Below, one piece after another: positions 1,566 to 59,209 of a stretch of 64,000 nt of DNA. Numbering within the stretch: position 1 is the stretch's first letter; the number at the start of each line of letters is the position of its first letter. Made by a program: the position numbers and the translations under genes. The notes below the pieces were generated by a model. That model did not search any database. It saw nothing but the letters and a program-made list of their open reading frames with translations, and was not told where the DNA came from. Origin of the DNA: an uncultured Gemmatimonadales bacterium (lineage in GTDB: Bacteria; Gemmatimonadota; Gemmatimonadetes; Gemmatimonadales; GWC2-71-9); contig CAVUMU010000002.1 in the NCBI GenBank assembly GCA_963742755.1, forward strand, positions 302,265 to 366,264, read 5' to 3'.

Positions 1566-2147
1566 ATGAACAAGCGTCGCGCGGAGCTGGAGGTGAGTGC
1601 CGGCGGGATCGTGTTCCGGCGGGTGCCCGGTCAGGCAGCGACCTACCTGCTCATTCGGGATTCCTATAAGAACTGGGGCTTTCCCAAGGGACACCTCGAG
1701 GGCGACGAGTCGCCCGCCCAGGCCGCCATCCGGGAAACGGCTGAAGAAACGGGTCTGGAGCACTTGATCCTGCAGGGACCCATTCGGGTGATCGACTGGC
1801 ACTTCCGCTTTCGCGGACGACACATTCACAAGTACTGCCACTTCTTCCTCTTCGAGAGCCCCCACGGGGAGGCCTCTCCCCAGGTGGACGAAGGCATCAC
1901 CGACTGCCAGTGGCGCCCGTTGCCCGAAGCGCTCGATCTCCTGAGCTATGACAATGCACGCGGGGTGCTGAAGCGCGCCGGGGAGATGGTTCGCACCCTG
2001 GTGGCCATTGGAGCGGGACGGGCGGGCGGAAAGGCGGAGAGGCGGACAGGCGGACAGGCGGAGGCATCGACCCAGGCGCAGGAGGGCGAGGAGATTGAAG
2101 GAGATAGCCAACCGGCCGCCAGTCCGCCCGTCCATCCGTCCGCCTGA
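1566..2147 (+). CDS. NUDIX hydrolase with low-complexity C-terminal tail
   Basis: Nudix box GHLEGDESPAQAAIRETAEETGL. The last ~45 aa (GRAGGKAERRTGGQAEA...) are the translation of a tandem octamer DNA repeat. Confidence 0.85.
   Translation: MNKRRAELEVSAGGIVFRRVPGQAATYLLIRDSYKNWGFPKGHLEGDESPAQAAIRETAEETGLEHLILQGPIRVIDWHFRFRGRHIHKYCHFFLFESPHGEASPQVDEGITDCQWRPLPEALDLLSYDNARGVLKRAGEMVRTLVAIGAGRAGGKAERRTGGQAEASTQAQEGEEIEGDSQPAASPPVHPSA
2015..2146. repeat. tandem octamer array (GGCGGANA x5) with partial inverted copy
   Basis: GGCGGAAA GGCGGAGA GGCGGACA GGCGGACA GGCGGAGG at 2024-2063. The inverted GTCCGCC copies lie at 2116-2146. All of it is inside the Nudix ORF tail. Confidence 0.75.
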
Positions 2148-7988: not shown

Positions 7989-8003
7989 TTCACCGCCCTC
8001 TGA

Positions 8004-8040
8004 AGCGCCCGTCCGCACTCGCTGCGGACGGGCGCTTTCG
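8004..8040 (+). terminator. intrinsic terminator after the first small outer-membrane protein gene
   Basis: AGCGCCCGTCCGC / GCGGACGGGCGCT stem followed by TTTCG. Confidence 0.6.
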
Positions 8041-8147
8041 CGTCTCACCCCACTGCCTGCTTCGGTTGACTTCCTTCGAAGCCCATTAGTACCTTCTGGC
8101 GCCCGCAGGGGTGGTTGATCGGCCCCGCACACCGAATGGAGCGTGTC

Positions 8148-12218: not shown

Positions 12219-12390
12219 CTGGGGCCGGGGGAAGGTCTTGCATCGGATCCCGGAATCCTGCTACCATTCTTTCGGCAGTACGGGTTCCACCTGCAACCGA
12301 GGGAGGTGATCCATTGTCTACAGCGTCAAGGGTCGCCTGCGGCCACTAGTAAGCGCTGCAAGCTAAACCCAGGCGACACTTCGAACCTGG

Positions 12391-12419
12391 GGGGGCCGCC
12401 ACTGGCGGCCCCTTTTTTT
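12391..12419 (+). terminator. intrinsic terminator inside the 5' leader of the CPBP protease gene
   Basis: GGGGCCGCC-act-GGCGGCCCC stem followed by seven Ts, 20 nt before the ATG at 12439. Confidence 0.7.
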
Positions 12420-16718: not shown

Positions 16719-16838
16719 GGAGGACGGAGAAGGCGGAGAAGACGGAGGACGGAGATGTAGAAACACAAACCCCCGATGCTTGGCACCGGGGGTTCTTGCT
16801 TTTCACCTCTTCGCCTTCTCCGTCCTCTTCAGTCCGTC
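16719..16838. repeat. purine-rich short-repeat palindrome flanking the lemA terminator
   Basis: GAGGACGGAGAAGGCG (16720-16735) is the exact reverse complement of 16812-16827. The arms are made of CGGAG-type short repeats. Confidence 0.8.
16768..16804 (+). terminator. intrinsic terminator after lemA, nested inside a larger palindrome
   Basis: AACCCCCG-11 nt-CGGGGGTT followed by CTTGCTTTT. Confidence 0.65.
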
Positions 16839-21651: not shown

Positions 21652-24600
21652 CCCGCCTTTACATAGTGGACGGAGTCGCTGCCCAGCAGCTCGCGCAATG
21701 CACGAACGAGGTCGTCTTCAGCCGCAACCCGGACTCGCCGCGACCGGAGTCGAACCGCCTCCCCGTTGCCGTCGCTCCATTCAATATAGAGCGGCGTAGG
21801 GCCCGGGTGCGCCGAACAGAGGGCGGCGACGGCCTGTAGCGCCGACGGCTGAAGTCCCGAGGGAGACCGCCAGCGGAGGCTGAGGGCGACGGCCCCCGAG
21901 GCCTTGAGGTCGGCCAGGTCCCGCGCGGCTTCCACGATGAAGGGAGCCTGATCCTCGCCTCGGTCCCGGTCGCTGTAACCGCCGGTGAGCAGGAGCGCCG
22001 CGTCGGGTAGGATGGTCTGGTTGAGCTTGGCCCAGGCATCCGGAAAGACGATAGCCTCCGCCGTGCCATGAAAATCCTCCAGCACCAGCCGGGCGTACTC
22101 CTTGCCCGTCTTCTTCGAGATCTGGCGCTTGACCCCGGTTACCACGGCGGCCACGCTCACCTGCTGCTCACCCCACTCGCTGAGGGTGGCCGTCGTGCGC
22201 GAGCCAAAGAGCTCCACCTCTTCCCGGTACCGCTCCAATGGGTGGCCTGAGATGAAGAAGCCCAGGACTTCCTTCTCCTTAGCCAGCCGCTCGGCTTCTG
22301 TCCAAGCGGGGATGTCGGGAATGATGGGAAGGTCGGGACGGGACGATGCGTTGACGCCTTCCTTCCCGTCTTCCCCGTCATTCCCGCCCTCTCCGAACAA
22401 CGACCCCTGCCCGGCCTCGCGCTCCTGGTTGCGCAGCTGGGCCTCGGCCAGCGCCGGCTCCAACACCTCGATCAGTTGTTTGCGGTGGCCCCCAAGCGAG
22501 TCGCAGGCCCCGGCGGCAACGAGGGACTCCAGCACCCGCTTATTGCACAGCCGCAAGTCGATCCGCTCCACCAGCTCGCCCAGCGTGCCGTAGGGAGCCT
22601 TATGCCGGCCGCCGATGATGGACGCGATCGCCCCTTCGCCCACGTTCCGCACCGCCCCCAGTCCGAAACGAATGCGTCGCTCGCCGATGACGGTGAACTT
22701 GAAGCCCGACTCGTTGACATCGGGAGGGAGGATCTCCAGCTCCAGCTCGCGCGCCTCGTTGATGTATTGTACCACCTTGTCGGTGTTGCCGATCTCCGAG
22801 GACAGGAGCGCGGCCATGAATTCGGCTGGGTAGTGGGCCTTGAGCCACGCGGTCTGGTAGGAGAGGATCGAGTAGGCCACCGAGTGCGATTTGTTGAAGC
22901 CGTAGCGACCGAAGGTGACGATCTGCCGCCCGAGCTCCTCTACCATGGACCGCGGGTGACCCAGCGCCACCGCCCGCTCCACGAACTTCGCGACCTCCTG
23001 ATTCGCCAGGTCCTGGTCTTTCTTGCCGACGGCTTTCCGGAGCACGTCGGCTTCCGCCAGGCTGAAGCCGGCGAGCACGTTGGCGATCCGCATCACCTGC
23101 TCCTGGTAGGTGATGACGCCATAAGTCGGCTCCAGCACCTCCCGGAGTGCCGGGTGGGGATAGGTCACTTTCTCCTGGCCCAGCTTCCGACGGATGAACA
23201 CAATGTGCATTCCTGCGTCCAGCGGGCCGGGGCGGAGCAGGGCGTTGGATGCCACCAGGTCGTCGAACCGGTCGCATCTCATCGCGCGAAGCGTGTCGGT
23301 GGCCAGCGGTGACTCGAACTGGAAGACGCCGGCGGTACGGCCCTGCCGCAGCAGCTCGTAGACCTTGGGGTCGTCGAAGGTCAGGGTCTCCATGTCGGGC
23401 CTGGTGCCGTGGCGCTCGCCGATCATGTTGACCGCGTCGTGGATCACGGTGAGTGTCTTGAGGCCCAGGAGGTCCATCTTGAGCATGCCGACCTTCTCCA
23501 GCGCCCCCATCTCGTACTGCGTAATGATGGATTCGCCTTCGGCAGCGGCGCCGGCGCCCCGGGTCGGGGCGGTGCACACCGGCACGTACTCGGAGAGCGG
23601 ACCGGGAGCGATCACCACCCCGGCCGCGTGCACCGACATGTGGCGGGAGATCCCCTCGATCCGCGAGCTCAGCTTAACCAGGCGCTCATAGGAGGGATTG
23701 TCCCGGATCAGGTCGCGCAGCTCGTCCACCTTCTTGGCGGCCTCCTGGACCGTAAGGCTGTAGGCCGGACCGGAGGGGATGAGCTTGGTAATGCGATCGG
23801 CCTCCCCGGGTGGGATCCTGAGAACCCGAGCAACATCCTTCACCGCCGCCCGGGCCTTCATGGTGCCGAAGGTGACGATCTGGCCGACGCTGGTGCGGCC
23901 GTAACGCTCCCGGACGTACTCGATCACCTCGCCCCGGCGCTCGAAGCAGAAGTCCACGTCGATATCCGGCATCGACACCCGCTCGGGGTTCAGGAACCGC
24001 TCGAACAGCAGGTCGAACTTGAGCGGATCCACATCGGTAATCCCAAGCGCATAGGCCACCAGCGAGCCGGCCACCGATCCCCGGCCAGGGCCGACTGGAA
24101 TGCCCCGCTCGCGCGCCGCCGCGATGAAATCCTGGACGATGAGGAAATAGCCGGCGTATCCAGCCGTGTTGATGACACCCAGCTCGTAAGCGAGACGGTC
24201 CCGGACCACGTCGGGCCAGGGCAGCCCGTAACGCCGCTCGGCACCAGTGGTCGCGAGGTGGTTGAGCAGGGCCTCGTCCGACGGGTACTCGGCGGGGCGG
24301 GGAAACTCGGGCAGGAAGTAGCGCTTCTCGAAGTCGAACTCGCACAGGCCGGCCACGACGCCGGTGTTGGCCAGCGTGTCCGGCCGATCCGGAAACAGTG
24401 CCTGCATCTCGGCTTCCGACTTCACGTACGATTCCTGGCCGGTGAACCGAAAGCGCTTCGGGTCGTCCAGATCGCTTCCCGTACCGATGGCCAGCAGCAC
24501 GTCGTGCGACTCGGCATCCTCGCGCTTGAGGTAGTGCGCATCGTTGGTGGCGACCACGCCGATGCCGAGCTCCTGGCCCAGCCGCAGCATCCCCTCGGTG

Positions 24601-25160
24601 ACCAGCCGTTCCTCCGGGAGGCCGTGTTGCTGGATCTCGAGCCAGAACCCGGCCGGTCCGAAGGTCTGGCTGAACCATTCCGCGCTGCGTCTGGCCTCCT
24701 CGAATCTCCCCTGCCGGAGATGGAGCGCCACTTCCCCTGAGAGACATGCCGCCAGGCAGACGATGCCCTCGGAGTGGGCCGCGAGTACCTCGCGGTCGAT
24801 TCGGGGCCGGCGGTAGAACCCCTCGACAAAACCGATCGAGGTGAGCCGGATCAGGTTTCGGTAGCCGGTGCGATTCTTGGCCAGCAGGACCAGATGGCTG
24901 TACGGGGCGGGCGCGCCCGGAGGCTTCTCACGGGCCGTCCGTGGGCCGAACGCAAGGTAGGCCTCGAAGCCGAGGATCGGCCGGATCTTCTGGGCCTTGG
25001 CGTGCTCGTAGAAGCTCCACGCCGCGTGCATGTTGCCGTGGTCGGTGACCGCCAGACTGTCCATGCCCAGCTTCTTGACGTGGGTAACCAGGTCAGGGAT
25101 CCGGTTGGCCCCGTCCAGCAGAGAGTATTCGCTATGGGTATGGAGATGAACGAAAGACAT
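21648..25160 (-). CDS. dnaE: DNA polymerase III alpha subunit
   Basis: PHP domain start MSFVHLHTHSEYSLLDG. 1170 aa, collinear with DnaE. Confidence 0.98.
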   Translation of the reverse strand: MSFVHLHTHSEYSLLDGANRIPDLVTHVKKLGMDSLAVTDHGNMHAAWSFYEHAKAQKIRPILGFEAYLAFGPRTAREKPPGAPAPYSHLVLLAKNRTGYRNLIRLTSIGFVEGFYRRPRIDREVLAAHSEGIVCLAACLSGEVALHLRQGRFEEARRSAEWFSQTFGPAGFWLEIQQHGLPEERLVTEGMLRLGQELGIGVVATNDAHYLKREDAESHDVLLAIGTGSDLDDPKRFRFTGQESYVKSEAEMQALFPDRPDTLANTGVVAGLCEFDFEKRYFLPEFPRPAEYPSDEALLNHLATTGAERRYGLPWPDVVRDRLAYELGVINTAGYAGYFLIVQDFIAAARERGIPVGPGRGSVAGSLVAYALGITDVDPLKFDLLFERFLNPERVSMPDIDVDFCFERRGEVIEYVRERYGRTSVGQIVTFGTMKARAAVKDVARVLRIPPGEADRITKLIPSGPAYSLTVQEAAKKVDELRDLIRDNPSYERLVKLSSRIEGISRHMSVHAAGVVIAPGPLSEYVPVCTAPTRGAGAAAEGESIITQYEMGALEKVGMLKMDLLGLKTLTVIHDAVNMIGERHGTRPDMETLTFDDPKVYELLRQGRTAGVFQFESPLATDTLRAMRCDRFDDLVASNALLRPGPLDAGMHIVFIRRKLGQEKVTYPHPALREVLEPTYGVITYQEQVMRIANVLAGFSLAEADVLRKAVGKKDQDLANQEVAKFVERAVALGHPRSMVEELGRQIVTFGRYGFNKSHSVAYSILSYQTAWLKAHYPAEFMAALLSSEIGNTDKVVQYINEARELELEILPPDVNESGFKFTVIGERRIRFGLGAVRNVGEGAIASIIGGRHKAPYGTLGELVERIDLRLCNKRVLESLVAAGACDSLGGHRKQLIEVLEPALAEAQLRNQEREAGQGSLFGEGGNDGEDGKEGVNASSRPDLPIIPDIPAWTEAERLAKEKEVLGFFISGHPLERYREEVELFGSRTTATLSEWGEQQVSVAAVVTGVKRQISKKTGKEYARLVLEDFHGTAEAIVFPDAWAKLNQTILPDAALLLTGGYSDRDRGEDQAPFIVEAARDLADLKASGAVALSLRWRSPSGLQPSALQAVAALCSAHPGPTPLYIEWSDGNGEAVRLRSRRVRVAAEDDLVRALRELLGSDSVHYVKAG

Positions 25161-25170
25161 GTAGGCCTTG

Positions 25171-25237
25171 GGGCTATGGGCTATGGGCTATGGGCTGTTC
25201 CGGTTCGACCCGCAGCCCATAGCCCATAGCCCATAGC
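25171..25237. repeat. tandem-heptamer hairpin (GGGCTAT)3 / (ATAGCCC)3
   Basis: 25-bp perfect stem (25173-25197 vs 25213-25237) with a 15-nt loop, between the hisIE stop and the dnaE start. Confidence 0.9.
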
Positions 25238-25240
25238 TCC

Positions 25241-25894
25241 TCACCGTGCTCTGGACTCCAGCTCACGTAACACGGCATCCAGCGGGACACCACGGGCCTG
25301 GAGGAGCACCAGAAGATGATAGAGGAGATCGGCCGCCTCGGACGCGAGACGTTCGTCGTCCTCCGAATTTGCCGCAACTACCACTTCCACCGCTTCCTCG
25401 CCCACCTTCTGCGAGGCCTTGCCGACGCCCTGGGCCAGCAGCTCGGCGGTATAGGACCCCCTGGGCTGGTCGGTGGCCCGCTGAGCGATGGTTCTAGCCA
25501 ACCGGCTCAGCACGTGGCCCCCCGGATCCTCTTCCGCCATGCTCCCGTCCGCCGGGCCACCCGTCCGCCCCATTACCGTCGAGAAGCAGGTGCGCGTCCC
25601 GGTGTGGCATGCCGGCCCGGTCTGTTCCACCCGATACAGGACCGTGTCGCCGTCGCAATCGAGCCGGACTTCGAGGATGCGCTGGACATGGCCGGACGTC
25701 TCACCCTTCTGCCACAGCACGCCGCGGGATCTACTGTAGTAGTGAGCCAAGCCGGTGGCGAGGGTACGGTTGAGCGCGTCCCGGTTGGCAAACGCAACCA
25801 TCAGGACGTCGCCGGAACGGCTTTCCTGGGTCACGACAGGCACTAGTCCGTCAGCACCGAACCTGACCGCCGACAGCCGTTTGTTCTCGGGCAC
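25241..25894 (-). CDS. hisIE: bifunctional phosphoribosyl-AMP cyclohydrolase / phosphoribosyl-ATP pyrophosphatase
   Basis: A HisI domain (LVPVVTQES...CHTGTRTCF) is fused to a HisE domain ([22 protein letters not shown]). Confidence 0.92.
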
Positions 25895-33349: not shown

Positions 33350-33414
33350 GTCACCCTGAGCGTAGCGAAGGGGCCGAAGCGACGCTCTGGCCCCCTCGCG
33401 CTGCTCGGGGTGAC
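33350..33414. repeat. long imperfect hairpin in the pdhC-lpdA spacer
   Basis: GTCACCC/GGGGTGAC, GAGC/GCTC and CGAAGGGGCC/GGCCCCCTCG stems. Confidence 0.7.
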
Positions 33415-33420
33415 AATCTG

Positions 33421-34773
33421 CTACCAGACCAGCGCCAGCGGATTTTCCAGCATCCCCTTCAGCGTCTTGAGAAACTGGGCGCCGGTCGCGCCGTCGATCA
33501 CCCGGTGGTCGCAGGACATGGTGAGCCGCATCCGGCGCCGGATAGCAACCGCGCCCTGGTGCGCCACCGGCTTCTCTGCCATGCGGCCCACCGCCAGAAT
33601 GCCGGTTTCGGGCGGATTGATGATGGCAGTGAACTCCTCGATGTCGAGCATGCCGAGGTTGGAGACCGTAAAGGTGCCGCCGGTGTACTCCTCGGGCTTG
33701 AGCCGCCGCTCCCGGGCCCGGGCGGCCAGATCCCGTGACTCGGTCGCGATCTCCCGCAGGGTCTTCTGGTCGGCGTGACGGATCACCGGGGTGATCAGAC
33801 CTTCCTCGACCGCGACCGCCATGCTCACGTGCACCTCGTTCCAGTAGCGGATGTGATCGTCCTGCCACCAGCTGTTGCAGGCCGGATGCTGCCGCAGAGC
33901 CATGGCCACGGCCTTGATAATGATATCATTGAACGAGACGCTGGCGTCTTTCCCCGCTTCCCCGCTTTCCCGCTTACCCGCCGCGCGAAGCTCTTCGCGC
34001 GCCTCGACTACCCGCTCCATGTCCACCTCGCTGGTGAGGTAGAACGTCGGGACCGGGCCGATCGACTGGGCGAGCCGCCGGGCGATGGTCTTCCGGATTT
34101 GGGTGAGCGGGACATCGGTGTAGGGGGCGCCAGCGGGGCCGCGGGGCAGCGGGGCAGCCGCAGGGCCTGACGACGCGGGTGCCGGTCGGGCGGGACTCGC
34201 CGCAACGGCCGTCTCAAGGTCACGGGCGATGATGCGGCCCTCCGGCCCGGTGCCGGCCACGGCCCCGAGATCCATTCCACGGTCCGCCGCGATCCGGCGC
34301 GCCAGTGGCGAAGCCTTGACCCTGGTGGGGGTGGCCTTGGCCCCGTTTCCTTCGCGCGCGGGCTGCTTTTCCACAGGACGCCGCTCTACCGTGGCCACGG
34401 CGGCTGGTGGCGCGGGCGGCATGGAGACCGGTCGGTCCTTCCCGGGCGATGGCTGCGTGGCTTGTGCCTCTTTGCTGGCCCGTGGCCCCGCGGCCCCGCT
34501 GTCCGTCCGCCCCACTGCCCCGCTTACATCCTCCCCTCGTTCCCCAATGACAGCAACCAGCTCCGAGACTGGTACGGTGGCGCCGGCCTCAACCACGTGC
34601 TTGAGCAGCGTCCCCGCAGCGCGGGCCACGAGCTCCATGACCGCCTTATCGGTCTCCACCTCGGCGAGCACGTCACCCACGGCGACGGTGTCGCCCTCCT
34701 GCTTTTTCCATTCGACCAGGCGCCCTTCCTCCATGGTGGGGGAGAGGGCTTCCATTACGACTTTCGTGGTCAT
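33421..34773 (-). CDS. pdhC: dihydrolipoamide acetyltransferase (E2) of the pyruvate dehydrogenase complex
   Basis: Lipoyl domain (EVETDKAVMEL), a peripheral subunit-binding domain, and a catalytic DHRVIDG. Confidence 0.93.
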   Translation of the reverse strand: MTTKVVMEALSPTMEEGRLVEWKKQEGDTVAVGDVLAEVETDKAVMELVARAAGTLLKHVVEAGATVPVSELVAVIGERGEDVSGAVGRTDSGAAGPRASKEAQATQPSPGKDRPVSMPPAPPAAVATVERRPVEKQPAREGNGAKATPTRVKASPLARRIAADRGMDLGAVAGTGPEGRIIARDLETAVAASPARPAPASSGPAAAPLPRGPAGAPYTDVPLTQIRKTIARRLAQSIGPVPTFYLTSEVDMERVVEAREELRAAGKRESGEAGKDASVSFNDIIIKAVAMALRQHPACNSWWQDDHIRYWNEVHVSMAVAVEEGLITPVIRHADQKTLREIATESRDLAARARERRLKPEEYTGGTFTVSNLGMLDIEEFTAIINPPETGILAVGRMAEKPVAHQGAVAIRRRMRLTMSCDHRVIDGATGAQFLKTLKGMLENPLALVW

Positions 34774-34793: not shown

Positions 34794-34893
34794 GCTATTG
34801 GCTATTGGCTATTGGCTATGGGCTGATCCGATGCCGACGAAGCTCCGCTTCCAGGGCGGAACAGCCAAGGGCCAATAGCCAATAGCCAATAGC
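34794..34893. repeat. tandem-heptamer hairpin (GCTATTG)3 / (CAATAGC)3
   Basis: At least 22-bp perfect stem plus an imperfect extension, with a 36-nt loop, between the pdhB stop and the pdhC start. Its unit is closely related to the unit of the 25171 element. Confidence 0.9.
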
Positions 34894-35874
34894 CTACTCC
34901 TTATACAAAACCTGATTCACCGCGCTGACCACTTTCGCCGGATCGGCCTTGGCCGCCTTCTCCAGCTGCTTGTTGTAGGGCATGGGGACATCGGCACCGG
35001 TGACCCTCAGCACCGGGGCGTCGAGCTCATCGAACACCTCGCGCTGAATGGTGTCGACCACCTGGGCCCCGATGCCGGCAAACGGCCAGCCCTCCTCGAC
35101 CACGACGCACCGGTGGGTCTTGGCCACCGAGGTGAGCACCGCTTCAGTGTCCATCGGCCGGATGGTGCGCAGGTCCAGCACCTCGGCCTTGATCCCGTCC
35201 TTGGCCAGCTGCTCCGCCGCTTTGAGCGACACGCCGACGCTCTTCGAGTGGCAGATGATCGTCACATCGCTGCCCTCGAGTTTGATGTCCGCCAGTCCGA
35301 GCGGCACGACATGCTCCCCCTCGGGCACCTCGCCCTTGAGGTTGTACAGCATCTCGCCCTCGATGAAGATGACCGGATTGTCATCCCGGATGGCGCTCTT
35401 CAGTAGCCCCTTTGCATCGGCCGGCGTCGCCGGCATGACCACCTTGAGTCCGGGGATGTGGGCGTACCAGCTCTCGAAGGCCTGGGAGTGCTGCGAGGCG
35501 AGCTGCAATGCAGATCCGCCGGGTCCCCGAAACACCGCGGGAACTCCTACCTGGCCATTCGACATGTAGCGCATCTTCGCGGCCGAGTTGACCAGCTGAT
35601 CGACCGCAAGCAGCGCGAAGTTCCAGGTCATGAACTCGATGACGGGCCGAAGCCCGACCATGGCGGCGCCCACCCCGACGCCCGCGAACCCCAGCTCGGT
35701 GATGGGGGTATCCACCACCCGCATCGGACCGAACTCATCGAGCAGGCCGCGGCTCACCTTGTAGGCGCCCTGATAGACCCCGACCTCCTCGCCCATGAGG
35801 AAGACGTTCGGGTCCCGCTGCATCTCCTCGCGAAGTGCCTGGTTGAGGGCGTCTCTATAGGTCAGAATTGCCAT
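34894..35874 (-). CDS. pdhB: pyruvate dehydrogenase E1 beta subunit
   Basis: Transketolase-like pyrimidine-binding and C-terminal domains, 326 aa. Confidence 0.93.
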   Translation of the reverse strand: MAILTYRDALNQALREEMQRDPNVFLMGEEVGVYQGAYKVSRGLLDEFGPMRVVDTPITELGFAGVGVGAAMVGLRPVIEFMTWNFALLAVDQLVNSAAKMRYMSNGQVGVPAVFRGPGGSALQLASQHSQAFESWYAHIPGLKVVMPATPADAKGLLKSAIRDDNPVIFIEGEMLYNLKGEVPEGEHVVPLGLADIKLEGSDVTIICHSKSVGVSLKAAEQLAKDGIKAEVLDLRTIRPMDTEAVLTSVAKTHRCVVVEEGWPFAGIGAQVVDTIQREVFDELDAPVLRVTGADVPMPYNKQLEKAAKADPAKVVSAVNQVLYKE

Positions 35875-35884
35875 AGGTGATCCC

Positions 35885-35948
35885 GGTGAACGGTGAACGG
35901 TAAACCGGATGCGCGGTAGCAGGCCGGTTCACTGTTTACCGTTTACGC
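35885..35948. repeat. tandem-heptamer hairpin (GTGAACG/GTAAACG units)
   Basis: GGTGAACGGTGAACGGTAAACCGG pairs with CCGGTTCACTGTTTACCGTTTAC, with transition mismatches. The right arm contains the pdhA stop. Confidence 0.8.
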
Positions 35949-44017: not shown

Positions 44018-44626
44018 ATGATTCAGCTCCCTCCCTCTCTTCTCATCACCTCGGCGGCCGCGGCGTTGACTGTGGCCATGGGCTGCTCCGGACGGGGCCA
44101 GGCGGCCGCGAGTGCCCCGGCTCCGGCGCCACCGGCCCGAGAGGCGGCCACGCCGGCTCCAGGAGCCGGCGACACCGCGGCCGTGCCGTCCTGGATGACC
44201 GTGGACAGTGCGGCCAGGGTGGTCACATTGTCGCTCGAAATTACCGCCCCACCCGGAGCGCCGTCGGCACTGATCAACGGCTATCGCGCCGGAGAGGCCC
44301 GCATCGTCGTGCCGCTCGGCTGGACGGTCAAATGGGATTGGCGCTCGGCCGACTCGACCGCCCCCCACAGCCTGGTGGTGATGGTGCAGCGGGAGAAGAT
44401 TCCGCTGGAGGGCGGCCGCGCCTCGTTCAGCAATGCCATGACCCGGGCGGTTGTCGAGGGACTCCGTCCGGGCCAGAACGATCAGACCATCTTCGTTGCC
44501 GATGAAGCCGGCTGGTACTGGCTGCTGTGCGGGGTACCGGGGCACGCCATCAAAGGCGAATGGCTGGAGCTACGGGTGGATCCGGAGGCGAAGCTGCCGA
44601 ACGTGGTCGTCAAGAACAAGGCGTGA
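44018..44626 (+). CDS. sulfocyanin-like cupredoxin lipoprotein with Glu at the axial-ligand position
   Basis: Lipobox VAMGC. Copper ligands are APHSLVV and CGVPGH-AIKG-E(W), where sulfocyanins have GMW. The Glu codon is at 44558-44560. Confidence 0.7.
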   Translation: MIQLPPSLLITSAAAALTVAMGCSGRGQAAASAPAPAPPAREAATPAPGAGDTAAVPSWMTVDSAARVVTLSLEITAPPGAPSALINGYRAGEARIVVPLGWTVKWDWRSADSTAPHSLVVMVQREKIPLEGGRASFSNAMTRAVVEGLRPGQNDQTIFVADEAGWYWLLCGVPGHAIKGEWLELRVDPEAKLPNVVVKNKA

Positions 44627-44686
44627 GCGGTAAGCGGTAAGCGGGACACAGCCCCTCCTCCCCTTCACCGCCTCACTGCTTACGCT
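44621..44686. repeat. tandem-heptamer hairpin (GTGAGCG/GTAAGCG units)
   Basis: GCGTGAGCGGTAAGCGGTAAGCGG pairs imperfectly with CCGCCTCACTGCTTACGC. Both convergent genes stop inside the arms. Confidence 0.8.
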
Positions 44687-48145: not shown

Positions 48146-48182
48146 GTGAAGACGTCTACGGTATTCTAGCAGACGTCTTCAT
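48146..48182. repeat. hairpin between convergent genes built on the palindromic unit AGACGTCT
   Basis: TGAAGACGTCT-13 nt-AGACGTCTTCA. A third GACGTCT copy lies at 48186-48192. Confidence 0.7.
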
Positions 48183-56062: not shown

Positions 56063-56097
56063 GGGTCCAGGGTCTAGAGTCTGGGGTCTGGAGTCTA
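56063..56097. repeat. five tandem heptamers (GGGTCCA GGGTCTA GAGTCTG GGGTCTG GAGTCTA)
   Basis: Exact period of 7 in the gap between the HD gene and the DUF4286 gene. I found no inverted partner. Confidence 0.75.
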
Positions 56098-57422: not shown

Positions 57423-57983
57423 GTGTTCGAAAGTGTAAAGGCCAGGCTGGAAAAGTTGTTTCGCGACCACTCCCGGTCCGACCCGCGGGCCTACCTGGCG
57501 GGCCTCCGCGAGGCTCTCCTGGAGGCCAAGGTGGGAGTCGGGGCGATGAAGAGCGCGCTCTCTGCCACCGAGCGCGAGCTGCTGAACGAACGGCGCCAGT
57601 TGGCCGACGCCGAGCGGAGAGGCCGGCTTGCGGCGGAGCTGCCTGATGCGGAAACGGCAGCGCTCGCGGAACGCTACGCGCTGAAGCATCGCGAGCGCGT
57701 CGCTGTCCTGGAGCGGAAGCTGGTGGTCCAGCGGGATGAGCTGGTGCTGGCGGAACGTGAGGTCGAGGAGATGCTCATTCAGGTGCGTGCCGGCCGGCCG
57801 GGGCTGGGGGCCGAGTCCATCGCGGCCGCGTGGAGGGACCTCGAGTCCGCCGGAGGGGCTCGACCCGACCTGGCGCCGGAGGACGAACGGCTTCGAGCCG
57901 AGGCCGACCGCAAGCTCAAGGAGCAGGCAGTGGAGGCGCAGCTGGCTTTCCTTAAATCAAAACTCAAAAAGCGCGAACGGTAA
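57423..57983 (+). CDS. coiled-coil protein, PspA/IM30-like
   Basis: Predicted to be largely alpha-helical with heptad-like charge pattern. GTG start with no clear RBS, so the boundary is uncertain. Confidence 0.4.
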   Translation: MFESVKARLEKLFRDHSRSDPRAYLAGLREALLEAKVGVGAMKSALSATERELLNERRQLADAERRGRLAAELPDAETAALAERYALKHRERVAVLERKLVVQRDELVLAEREVEEMLIQVRAGRPGLGAESIAAAWRDLESAGGARPDLAPEDERLRAEADRKLKEQAVEAQLAFLKSKLKKRER

Positions 57984-58082
57984 ATAGTGAGCGGTAAACG
58001 GACGACTCCTGCGTTCCTGGCGCTGCTGAGCCTCGCGGCAGCGTGTATTTCCTGTGCACCCTTCACGGTTCACCGTTCACGC
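57973..58082. repeat. degenerate tandem-heptamer inverted repeat (GTAAACG/GTGAGCG units)
   Basis: The left arm GCGAACGGTAAATAGTGAGCGGTAAACGG pairs with the right arm CCTTCACGGTTCACCGTTCACGC. The element overlaps the end of one gene and the signal-peptide region of the next. Confidence 0.55.
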
Positions 58083-59108
58083 CTTTCAGTCCCATCCCCG
58101 ACGGTCACTCCCACGCATGGGCTCAAGCTGGCGCACACTTACAGCATCGTCGCCTATGACTCCATCACCGGCGACCTCGGGGTAGCGGTACAGTCCAAGT
58201 TTCCCAACGTAGGTGGAATTGTGCCGTGGGGGCGGGCCGGCGTCGGCGCGGTGGCGACCCAGAGTCTGTCGAATACCGACTACGGTGAGCGGGGGCTCGA
58301 CCTCATGGCCCAAAGCGCCACAGCGGAGGAGGCGCTGCGCATCGTGATGCGGACCGATACCATGCTGCAGGATCGACAAGTCGGCATGGTGGATGCCCAG
58401 GGGAACGCGGCCAGCTTCACCGGAGATCGAACCTTTGATTGGGCCGGAGGTCGTGTCGGGTCCGATGCGCCTGCCCGGAGCCCTTCGCCAGTGCGCAGAG
58501 TACCCTCTACGCCGGGACGGCCTGGCGGCCCGATCGGCGGAAAGGGCGAGGTCATCGTGGGCCGGGGTTACGCCGCCCAGGCGAACATCATGGTGTCGGA
58601 TCAGACGGTCAGGAATCTGGCGGAGACCTTCGAACGGACCAGCGGCAGCCTGGCCGACCGGTTGATGGCCGCGCTCAAGGCCGGACAGGCCGGCGGTGGC
58701 GACAAGCGCGGTATGCAGTCGGCTGCCCTCCTGGTGGTCCGAAAGAACGGCGGGTATTTAGGCGCCAACGATCGCTTCATCGACATCCGGGTCTACGACG
58801 CCAGGGATCCCATCGCAGAGCTGGAGCGGCTCCTGGCCCTGCACCGGCTGCACTTCTTCCCCAGCGAGCCGCGCGACCTGATTCCTCTCGGGCCGGCCCT
58901 GGTCGCCAGGCTGGAGCCGATCCTGTTGAGCGAGCCACAAGGCCAGCGGGAGAAGTGGCTCAAGCAGAGGCAGGGCAGGGCCACGCCGGCGTTTCTCCAG
59001 GCGCTGCAGAATTTCATGTACTGGGAGAACTACGACGTGCGGGTGCGGATGGACGGAAAGATCGATCGGGTGGTGCTGGAAGACATCTTAGAAAAACGTA
59101 AGCGGTGA
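57987..59108 (+). CDS. DUF1028 (Ntn-hydrolase fold) lipoprotein
   Basis: Lipobox LAAAC. YSIVAYDSITGDLGVAVQSKFPNVGGIVPWGRAGVGAVATQS matches the DUF1028 core. Confidence 0.8.
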   Translation: MSGKRTTPAFLALLSLAAACISCAPFTVHRSRLSVPSPTVTPTHGLKLAHTYSIVAYDSITGDLGVAVQSKFPNVGGIVPWGRAGVGAVATQSLSNTDYGERGLDLMAQSATAEEALRIVMRTDTMLQDRQVGMVDAQGNAASFTGDRTFDWAGGRVGSDAPARSPSPVRRVPSTPGRPGGPIGGKGEVIVGRGYAAQANIMVSDQTVRNLAETFERTSGSLADRLMAALKAGQAGGGDKRGMQSAALLVVRKNGGYLGANDRFIDIRVYDARDPIAELERLLALHRLHFFPSEPRDLIPLGPALVARLEPILLSEPQGQREKWLKQRQGRATPAFLQALQNFMYWENYDVRVRMDGKIDRVVLEDILEKRKR

Positions 59109-59209
59109 GCGGGCAAGAAAGAGCGTGAGCGGGAAAAACGGGTGCCAGGCGATTCGTTGCGCTTTAACTCCCGCTTACCGCTTACGCTGTTTTTTCCCCG
59201 CTTACGCTT
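59097..59209. repeat. nested double hairpin of GTAAGCG/GTGAGCG units with a T-run
   Basis: CGTAAGCGGTGAGCGGG and AGCGTGAGCGGG pair with CCCGCTTACCGCTTACG and CCCCGCTTACGCT. TGTTTTTT follows the inner hairpin. Confidence 0.8.

Follow-up and report, generated by a model that had tools for sequence, protein, structure and literature searches.

The 64 kb of Gemmatimonadales DNA analysed here (contig CAVUMU010000002.1, positions 302,265–366,264; hereafter the window) carries between hisIE and dnaE a hairpin whose two arms are each built from tandem copies of a heptamer, raising the question of what kind of element this is, what process generates it and how it is tolerated immediately upstream of an essential gene. 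Approximately 8–10 copies of this type of element lie within the window. We found them to represent a strongly enriched, period-specific and polar class of palindromic repeats at gene ends, in which arms gain and lose complete units, orthologous sites turn over rapidly and sequence families reappear from one locus to another. At odds somewhat better than even (a probability of roughly 0.55), we consider these paired heptanucleotide-repeat palindromes to be dispersed long simple-sequence-repeat palindromes, akin to repetitive extragenic palindromic (REP) elements and bacterial interspersed mosaic elements (BIME), that are moulded by slippage at the DNA level and are kept at gene 3′ ends.

The arms of the focal hairpin (Table 1) form the longest perfect inverted repeat at the locus, 25 bp on either side of a 15-nt spacer, and the original prediction of such a repeat, with three heptamers in each arm, matched the sequence exactly. 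Tandem Repeats Finder (TRF) delimits (GGGCTAT)×3.7 at 25171–25196 and (AGCCCAT)×3.4 at 25214–25237, both at 100 % match, so that each arm comprises ∼3.5 heptamer copies. The hairpin takes up the space from the hisIE stop codon to the dnaE ATG, with 0–3 nt to spare on one side and ∼10 nt on the other, too little for a promoter to fit in front of the ATG. When folded as RNA the structure has a stem of ∼25–29 pairs and a free energy of −61.7 kcal/mol for the minus (sense) strand and −63.4 kcal/mol for the plus strand. The corresponding z-scores are −9.0 and −10.2, and 0 of 200 dinucleotide shuffles were as stable.

The wider occurrence of this architecture was assessed in the window together with 80 related, dnaE-centred loci (1.35 Mb in total; individual loci and contigs are cited below by their L-numbers). 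The N-terminus of the window's DnaE is 96 % identical to that of the metagenome-assembled genome (MAG) DATMDQ01, and the best 80 relatives are all Gemmatimonadota. TRF arrays of period 7 numbered 89, compared with ∼20 in dinucleotide shuffles (4.5-fold), and those of period 8 numbered 45, compared with ∼22. The excess at period 9 was ascribed to coding repeats, as were those at periods 6 and 12, and arrays of periods 5, 10 and 11 showed no excess over the shuffles. A reverse-complement partner within 250 nt was found for 44 of 92 period-7 arrays (0–3 in reversed-only or complemented-only controls), for 21 of 55 period-8 arrays (controls 3–6) and for 13 of 109 period-9 arrays (controls 7–8), with essentially none at periods 5, 6 and 10–12. 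The predicted recurrence of tandem 7-mers with an inverted partner is therefore far above chance, but the layout is not exclusive to period 7, as periods 8 and 9 occur as well.

Arms usually contain 3–4 units and often enclose an inner core, which is either a canonical terminator hairpin or a REP-like palindrome, GTCAYCCCGAGC...GCTCGGGRTGAC. This palindrome was observed nested within heptamer arms at L013, L019, L041, L085, L092, L094, L108, L128 and L229; in the window it is solitary, forming a separate element at 33355–33420 in the minus-strand gap from E2 to E3 (components of a 2-oxoacid dehydrogenase). The architecture was also seen at L130, a Pyrinomonadaceae (acidobacterial) MAG, where seven paired heptamer elements with different units, including GGACGAT, AATGATG (twice), GCTGAAT and TAAATCG, are packed into 8 kb, more densely than in the window.

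The arms follow a fixed order. With polarity scored from the first three units only, the 5′ arm, on either strand, was G-rich in 37 of 39 elements (P=3×10−9), and in 19 of 21 once GTRAR-type units were left out. Among the matches listed from public genomes, GTRARCG arrays had their partner downstream in 55 cases and upstream in 1, and GGCTATK arrays in 30 and 1, respectively. For other units, at loci fetched for a different reason, G-first elements prevailed by 25 : 4 in Gemmatimonadota and by 29 : 5 in other phyla (54 : 9 in total). The inner cores do not follow this rule. One explanation for the polarity, which we regard as unlikely, is that a single polar, sequence-independent and undescribed process, either replication/repair or an enzyme, grows G-rich 7-nt arrays towards the dyad. 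If true, it would explain at one stroke why the G-rich arm comes first almost universally, why units of 7 nt are favoured and why arms have 3–4 units, and it would span Gemmatimonadota, Acidobacteria, Betaproteobacteria and Xanthomonas-like bacteria, which on this explanation share all three features.

It had been claimed that the unit differs between loci, unlike in REP families. Several units do indeed occur, but two families recur both within the window and across genomes, and some copies have loops in common. All six period-7 elements of the window belong to one of two unit families, GTRARCG (four elements) or GGCTATK (two), and both are found at many loci in many genomes, as is characteristic of multi-copy extragenic palindromes such as REP elements and REPINs. 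Among the public matches listed, 38 of 120 for one family and 30 of 80 for the other (about a third) belonged to Gemmatimonadota. The loop core GCTCCG..CGGAG occurs at four loci of a single MAG; the start of the focal spacer (GGCTG|TTCCG) is common to the 34794–34894 element and to metagenome copies, and the inner boundary GGCTGTTCCG is common to the elements at 25171 and 34794 and to three metagenome loci. Furthermore, the GTRARCG family usually possesses A-rich 5′ and T-rich 3′ flanks of the form AAAGCG...CGCTTTT, and family ends are conserved (e.g. AAAGCGTGAAC...GTTCACGCTTT).

Units, loop cores, inner boundaries and ends shared in this way would be expected of non-autonomous mobile elements, REPIN/REP-like or resembling MITEs (miniature inverted-repeat transposable elements), whose heptamer terminal inverted repeats serve as binding sites for a transposase supplied in trans, e.g. 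a REP-associated tyrosine transposase (RAYT; IS200/IS605-type Y1), and which insert at gene ends. The characteristic arm size of 3–4 units, the third of listed matches that fall in Gemmatimonadota and the wholesale replacement of one family by another at orthologous gaps (see below) likewise favour such an origin. Nevertheless, we judge this origin to be somewhat improbable. No direct target-site duplication accompanied any copy read, the flanks being either complementary (A-rich/T-rich) or unrelated, and no transposase was present among the ∼50 window proteins scanned. Element ends read GCGTGAAC..., AGCGCTATTGG... and GGAGCTATGG..., none with a GTAG or CGTC tag, and loops within the window are mostly unrelated, such that the combination of terminal inverted repeats, target-site duplication and conserved interior that defines a MITE was not found. 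In addition, dozens of units, seven of them within 8 kb of L130, would call for many enzymes or for one that is indifferent to sequence, and a G-first order in all families and phyla points to a general constraint rather than to family ancestry.

Orthologous sites turn over quickly. Of 39 hisIE–dnaE junctions, the gap is ≤ 14 nt in 21 (e.g. TAGGCATG) and a tandem-arm hairpin is present in 15, with ∼10 different units among these 15 (GCTATGG, GCTATTG, GTGAACR, GGAGTCA, GGTRAGC, GGCTATC/AGTCATC, GTCGCGR, AGTCGTG, GGTCGAG and CAGCCRT). In comparison with L002, the closest relative, at ∼87 % DNA identity, elements were present in all four shared gaps and matched in none: the hisIE–dnaE gap holds GGGCTAT in the window and GTGAACR in L002, the E1β–E2 gap GGCTATT and GTCTAGA, the E2–E3 gap a REP-like palindrome and AGGTGAG, and a convergent junction GACGGAGAA and GGGCAGCG, respectively. 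Change within populations was also evident, as the metagenome contigs L321 and L325 differ from L323, to which they are 99.5–99.9 % identical, by exactly one CCCATAG unit in one arm. These alleles came from the second of two search patterns; the first, the exact hisIE–hairpin junction, had no match in metagenomes, and an exact-protein look-up of E1β for strain variants returned no record. Large expansions affect one arm only (e.g. 18 units vs 5, and 10 vs 3), and the copy numbers of the two arms are uncorrelated (rho −0.14 and 0.17). Mirror copying between the arms by fold-back template switching is thus unsupported, and the population polymorphism together with the unbalanced arms argues for slippage that acts on each arm independently. 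As a separate observation, two of the same three contigs (L321, L323 and L325; ∼99.5 % identical) carry a 57-nt palindromic insertion, GCCCGCGGGGACGGATCCGCGG...CCGGAGCGGATCCCG (L321 6230–6290), so that non-tandem hairpins also show presence/absence polymorphism. The concern that the arrays might be assembly or sequencing artefacts, which the original prediction had itself raised, can be set at next to nothing: the same architecture recurs in far more than 100 independent assemblies from different projects, at orthologous loci and elsewhere, and Joint Genome Institute (JGI) metagenome contigs carry it with alleles one unit apart.

With regard to position, genes were called with our own codon-usage open reading frame (ORF) picker, which is crude. 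Elements start between approximately −10 and +13 nt from a stop codon, which often lies within the first units, and the proposed location at gene ends and in intercistronic gaps is borne out by this proximity. Occupancy was 9 of 42 for convergent, 14 of 186 for co-directional and 3 of 68 for divergent gaps, a difference that was not significant on these crude gene calls (P=0.22); at least one of the three divergent cases was miscalled, as L028 is really the co-directional hisIE–dnaE gap. Location at gene 3′ ends, with convergent gaps the most often occupied, would suit selected RNA elements, i.e. bidirectional factor-independent terminators or 3′-end-protecting stem–loops that replace canonical terminators scarce in this high-GC lineage. 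Such a role is possible, if doubtful, and it is partly compatible with our preferred reading. Also consistent with it are arms that extend terminator cores at an orthologous convergent junction (16767–16795 in the window, and L002, L004, L006, L025, L037, L059 and L076), the A-rich 5′ and T-rich 3′ flanks that bring the GTRARCG family nearest to an intrinsic terminator, and a lack of enrichment for canonical terminators across the window (13 vs 9.9 expected, and 10 vs 9.2 expected).

Against an RNA role, the focal copy and its neighbours are intra-operonic, with copies inside the E1α–E1β–E2–E3 operon and directly upstream of dnaE, E1β and E2, whose expression is required. As dnaE begins 10 nt past the focal stem, and E1β and E2 just past theirs, the gene layout implies that transcription must cross these hairpins. 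Among 50 sense-direction tails, only seven had ≥ 4 U in 8 nt and none had ≥ 5, in keeping with the prediction that most copies lack a U-tract. For the focal copy, after whose stem the sense strand reads CCAAGGCCUAC with no U-tract, a canonical intrinsic terminator can be rejected, and the terminator scan of the window did not pick up the paired-array elements. The broader statement that these are not standard terminators applies to the focal copy and to the usual absence of a U-tract, but not cleanly to the GTRARCG family with its A-rich/T-rich flanks. A search of the whole window against Rfam, proposed at the outset, returned no matches at gathering thresholds. Moreover, stem G : U pairs are not in excess on the sense strand (31 sense vs 42 antisense, P=0.24), leaving RNA-level selection unsupported; stems tolerate many A : C mismatches, for several copies the antisense strand gives the better fold, many relatives have no element at the same junction, and copies occur in frame within coding regions. 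Shaping at the DNA rather than the RNA level is what the lack of a G : U excess, the equal folding of both strands and the in-frame copies in dnaE indicate.

These in-frame copies lie in the dnaE coding region at ∼22330–22395 (minus strand), as an inverted repeat with a period of ∼9 nt, GGGAATGAC GGGGAAGAC GGGAAGGAA ... CGTCCCGTCCCGACCTTCCCATCATTCCC, and also at L001 4178–4260, L002 12781–12866 and L003 12787–12851. The repeat directly follows a QGSLFG clamp-binding-like motif, in a linker, with the G-rich arm first, and looks like the paired-array architecture surviving within a protein linker. A further candidate role was that of a stop-codon cassette, given that three copies of a stop-bearing 7-mer place stops in all three frames, as TAG does in the right focal arm. 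Units with a stop codon make up 27 of 36 arrays, compared with 24 % of random 7-mers; after the letters of each unit were permuted the excess fell (22 vs 13.7 expected, and 32 vs 26.6 expected), and we therefore attribute it mostly to composition and survivorship. Stop codons in heptamer repeats have likewise been ascribed to these causes (MacGregor, 2015; PMC4679880).

How, then, do these elements relate to known repeats? Like REP, BIME and REPIN sequences, they are extragenic palindromes that lie in operons as well as at gene ends, have many copies, form sequence families, often occur as inverted pairs and vary at orthologous gaps between related species. REP elements are read through by polymerase and are known to stabilize upstream mRNA. 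Unlike the present elements, REP elements have arms that are not tandem and carry a GTAG/CGTC tag; they are associated with RAYT transposases. Rickettsia palindromic elements (RPE) are 100–150 bp in length, conserved in sequence and able to sit in frame inside genes; the period-9 copy in the dnaE linker, a palindrome in frame at a permissive site, is similar in this respect, but RPE are not tandem-unit hairpins. The short tandemly repeated repetitive (STRR) heptamers of cyanobacteria, reportedly described by Mazel in 1990, resemble the present arrays as tandem heptamers. Paired DNA-uptake sequences, CRISPR and iterons were considered and rejected, as none of them combines tandem 7-mers, inverted pairing and a multiplicity of units.

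The claim that no described class matches could not be upheld. TAACTGA repeats in Beggiatoaceae and cyanobacteria contain stops in three frames and overlap ORF ends (MacGregor, 2015; PMC4679880); as here, a stop-bearing heptamer is found in several phyla, with a means of spread that is obscure in their case. They differ in being nearly all direct (169 direct sets vs 1 indirect) and in lying just upstream of start codons. According to the summary of Mrazek (2007) given in PMC4679880, heptanucleotide repeats are the most abundant class of long simple-sequence repeats (SSRs) in most genomes, with slippage and a polymerase contact length of ∼7 nt proposed as the cause. The present arrays agree with that class in their tandem 7-nt units, their abundance among long repeats and their mostly non-coding location; the arrays described in that summary are direct, and inverted pairing, polarity and stop-codon placement do not form part of the description given there.

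The closest precedent is provided by Xanthomonas, in which intergenic GGGAATC heptamer arrays form 70–75 convergent inverted pairs per genome, 0–50 bp from coding-strand stop codons, which they overlap in some cases, with under-representation between divergent ORFs, lengths that vary by species and no linkage to insertion sequences (IS); these were read as G-quadruplex (G4) motifs (Rehm et al., 2015; PMC4692102). The likeness is extensive, in that G-first convergent inverted heptamer arrays lie in intergenic regions near stop codons in both cases; here, 44 of 92 period-7 arrays had an opposite-strand convergent partner, with the 5′ arm G-rich in 37 of 39. Theirs consist of a single unit with a G3 run, whereas ours comprise many units that mostly lack one: the focal GGGCTAT has G3, but GTRARCG, GCTATTG and most units of the relatives do not. 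Periods of 8 and 9, arms around terminator or REP-like cores and occurrence in another phylum also set the present elements apart. What appears to be new here is the presence of many unrelated units per genome, the period-8/9 and in-frame variants, the wrapping of cores, the replacement of whole elements and the G-first order across phyla.

Could the arrays then serve as protein-binding or structure-forming sites, as ribbon–helix–helix heptad operators or as G4 structures such as (GGGCTAT)4? Heptad-array operators exist in inc18 plasmids, and the focal arm formally qualifies as a G4 motif, as it contains four runs of GGG separated by 4 nt. GGGAATC arrays form G4 in vitro (Rehm et al., 2015; PMC4692102). 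Even so, we hold such a function to be very improbable, since most units have no G3 run (GTRARCG, GGCTATT, GGAGTCA and AGGTGAG among them), a single genome has many unrelated units, duplex pairing with the complementary arm would compete with G4 formation, and copies follow stop codons rather than occupying promoter regions.

Our preferred reading, that of slippage-shaped palindromes kept at gene 3′ ends, would operate as follows. An element would consist of two arrays of a 7-nt unit, less often of 8 or 9 nt, paired in convergent, inverted orientation and beginning right behind a stop codon. A few unit families would be copied between loci, via gene conversion or a mobilizing activity, after which each arm would gain and lose whole units independently through replication slippage. 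Only sites at which a long stem does no harm would retain copies: the 3′ ends of genes, the gaps between cistrons and, for the period-9 form, in-frame positions within protein linkers. The focal copy should not be an efficient terminator, because dnaE starts 10 nt beyond it and polymerase must read through. As the base of its stem abuts the hisIE stop, a terminating ribosome would probably open the stem and leave the dnaE ribosome-binding site usable, which may be why the hairpin can be accommodated 10 nt upstream of an essential gene. RNase III cleaves double-stranded RNA of two helical turns, and a stem of that length would be a plausible site for processing or stability.

A number of points weigh against this reading. 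Slippage alone leaves unaccounted for the occurrence of the same units at unrelated loci and the clustering at 3–4 units per arm, and it does not account for the G-first arm (37/39; 55 : 1; 30 : 1; 54 : 9). The route of copying between loci is missing from the explanation, and the roles of ribosome opening and RNase III are only ones that we infer. Depletion from divergent gaps is not significant with the crude gene calls used (P=0.22), and, given its A-tract/T-tract flanks, the GTRARCG family may well terminate transcription.

Table 1. Positions of the focal hairpin, its flanking genes and the other repeat elements of the window
Feature	Position	Strand	Description
hisIE (PRA-CH + PRA-PH domains)	25241–25894	−	TGA stop at 25241–25243, adjoining the stem
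Left arm (5′ on plus strand)	25173–25197		GCTATGGGCTATGGGCTATGGGCTG, within TRF array 25171–25196
Spacer, 15 nt	25198–25212		TTCCGGTTCGACCCG
Right arm	25213–25237		CAGCCCATAGCCCATAGCCCATAGC, exact reverse complement of left arm
dnaE, 1170 aa	21648–25160	−	ATG at 25158–25160, ∼10 nt past the stem
Second GGCTATK-family element	34794–34894		(GCTATTG)×4.4, inner stem–loop, (AGCCAAT)×4.6; between E1β stop and E2 start, 2-oxoacid dehydrogenase operon
GTRARCG-family element	35884–35948		Between E1α and E1β; E1α stop codon inside an arm
GTRARCG-family element	44621–44686		Convergent SoxE-like/redoxin genes; upstream TGA in first unit
GTRARCG-family element, inner hairpin	57973–58082		Upstream TAA stop within array
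Nested GTRARCG-family element	59097–59209		DUF1028 gene/POT-transporter gene; upstream TGA inside array
Element with period ∼9 arms	16719–16838		GACGGAGAA arms around canonical terminator hairpin 16767–16795; convergent LemA/M23 peptidase genes
Period-8 element	2025–2144		(GGCGGACA)×4.8 paired with (CCGTCCGC)×4.1; unit without stop codon
Tandem GTCTAGA/GTCTGGG array	56063–56097		No clear partner in window
Plain hairpin	48146–48182		Arms not tandem

All of the further loci that had been listed proved to be real repeats, five of them period-7 pairs in addition to the focal copy, although, of the four described as degenerate or tandem-only, those at 2025–2144 and 16719–16838 have periods of 8 and ∼9, respectively (Table 1). 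The 56063–56097 array is tandem only, its unit occurring as a paired element in the relative L002, and that at 48146–48182 is a plain hairpin. At 2025–2144, the ORF of a NUDIX protein (1566–2147; Pfam domain at residues 17–131) reads through the element and ends at a TGA right after the 3′ arm, such that the element probably adds a tail of ∼40 aa to the protein.

Other repeats in the window include octamer arrays within the E2 acyltransferase gene (33421–34773), namely TTCCCCGC×4 (33950–33981) and CAGCGGGG×3.5 (34131–34158). These lie in the linkers that flank the E3-binding domain, mutually inverted and ∼150 nt apart; they are kept in L002, L003, L007 and L012, and their polarity in the sense direction is the opposite (C-rich first). 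Strong GC-rich hairpins without tandem arms, e.g. GAAGCGCCCGTCCGC...GCGGACGGGCGCTTTC and GGGGGCCGCC...GGCGGCCCCTTTTT, are present at 7989–8114 and 12219–12417 and look like conventional terminators. The remaining genes of the window are housekeeping genes, e.g. those for ATP synthase, methionyl-tRNA synthetase (MetRS), AccA and LipB, and a scan of the window for tRNA and tmRNA genes found nothing.

No long simple repeats are commoner in bacteria than those of heptanucleotides, for which neither origin nor role has been explained, and the sole detailed account of paired arrays interprets them, in one genus, as G4 motifs. As many unrelated units are found in the same architecture, G4 formation cannot be the general explanation. 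Turnover is fast, with whole elements replaced at ∼87 % DNA identity and single units changing within populations. The G-first rule could reflect avoidance of Rho, RNA : DNA hybrid strength or a bias in slippage, each of which is open to experiment. Finally, these elements alter C-termini, extend ORFs (as in the NUDIX tail), sit in essential operons and break short-read assemblies, and as such they should be known to those who annotate high-GC soil MAGs.

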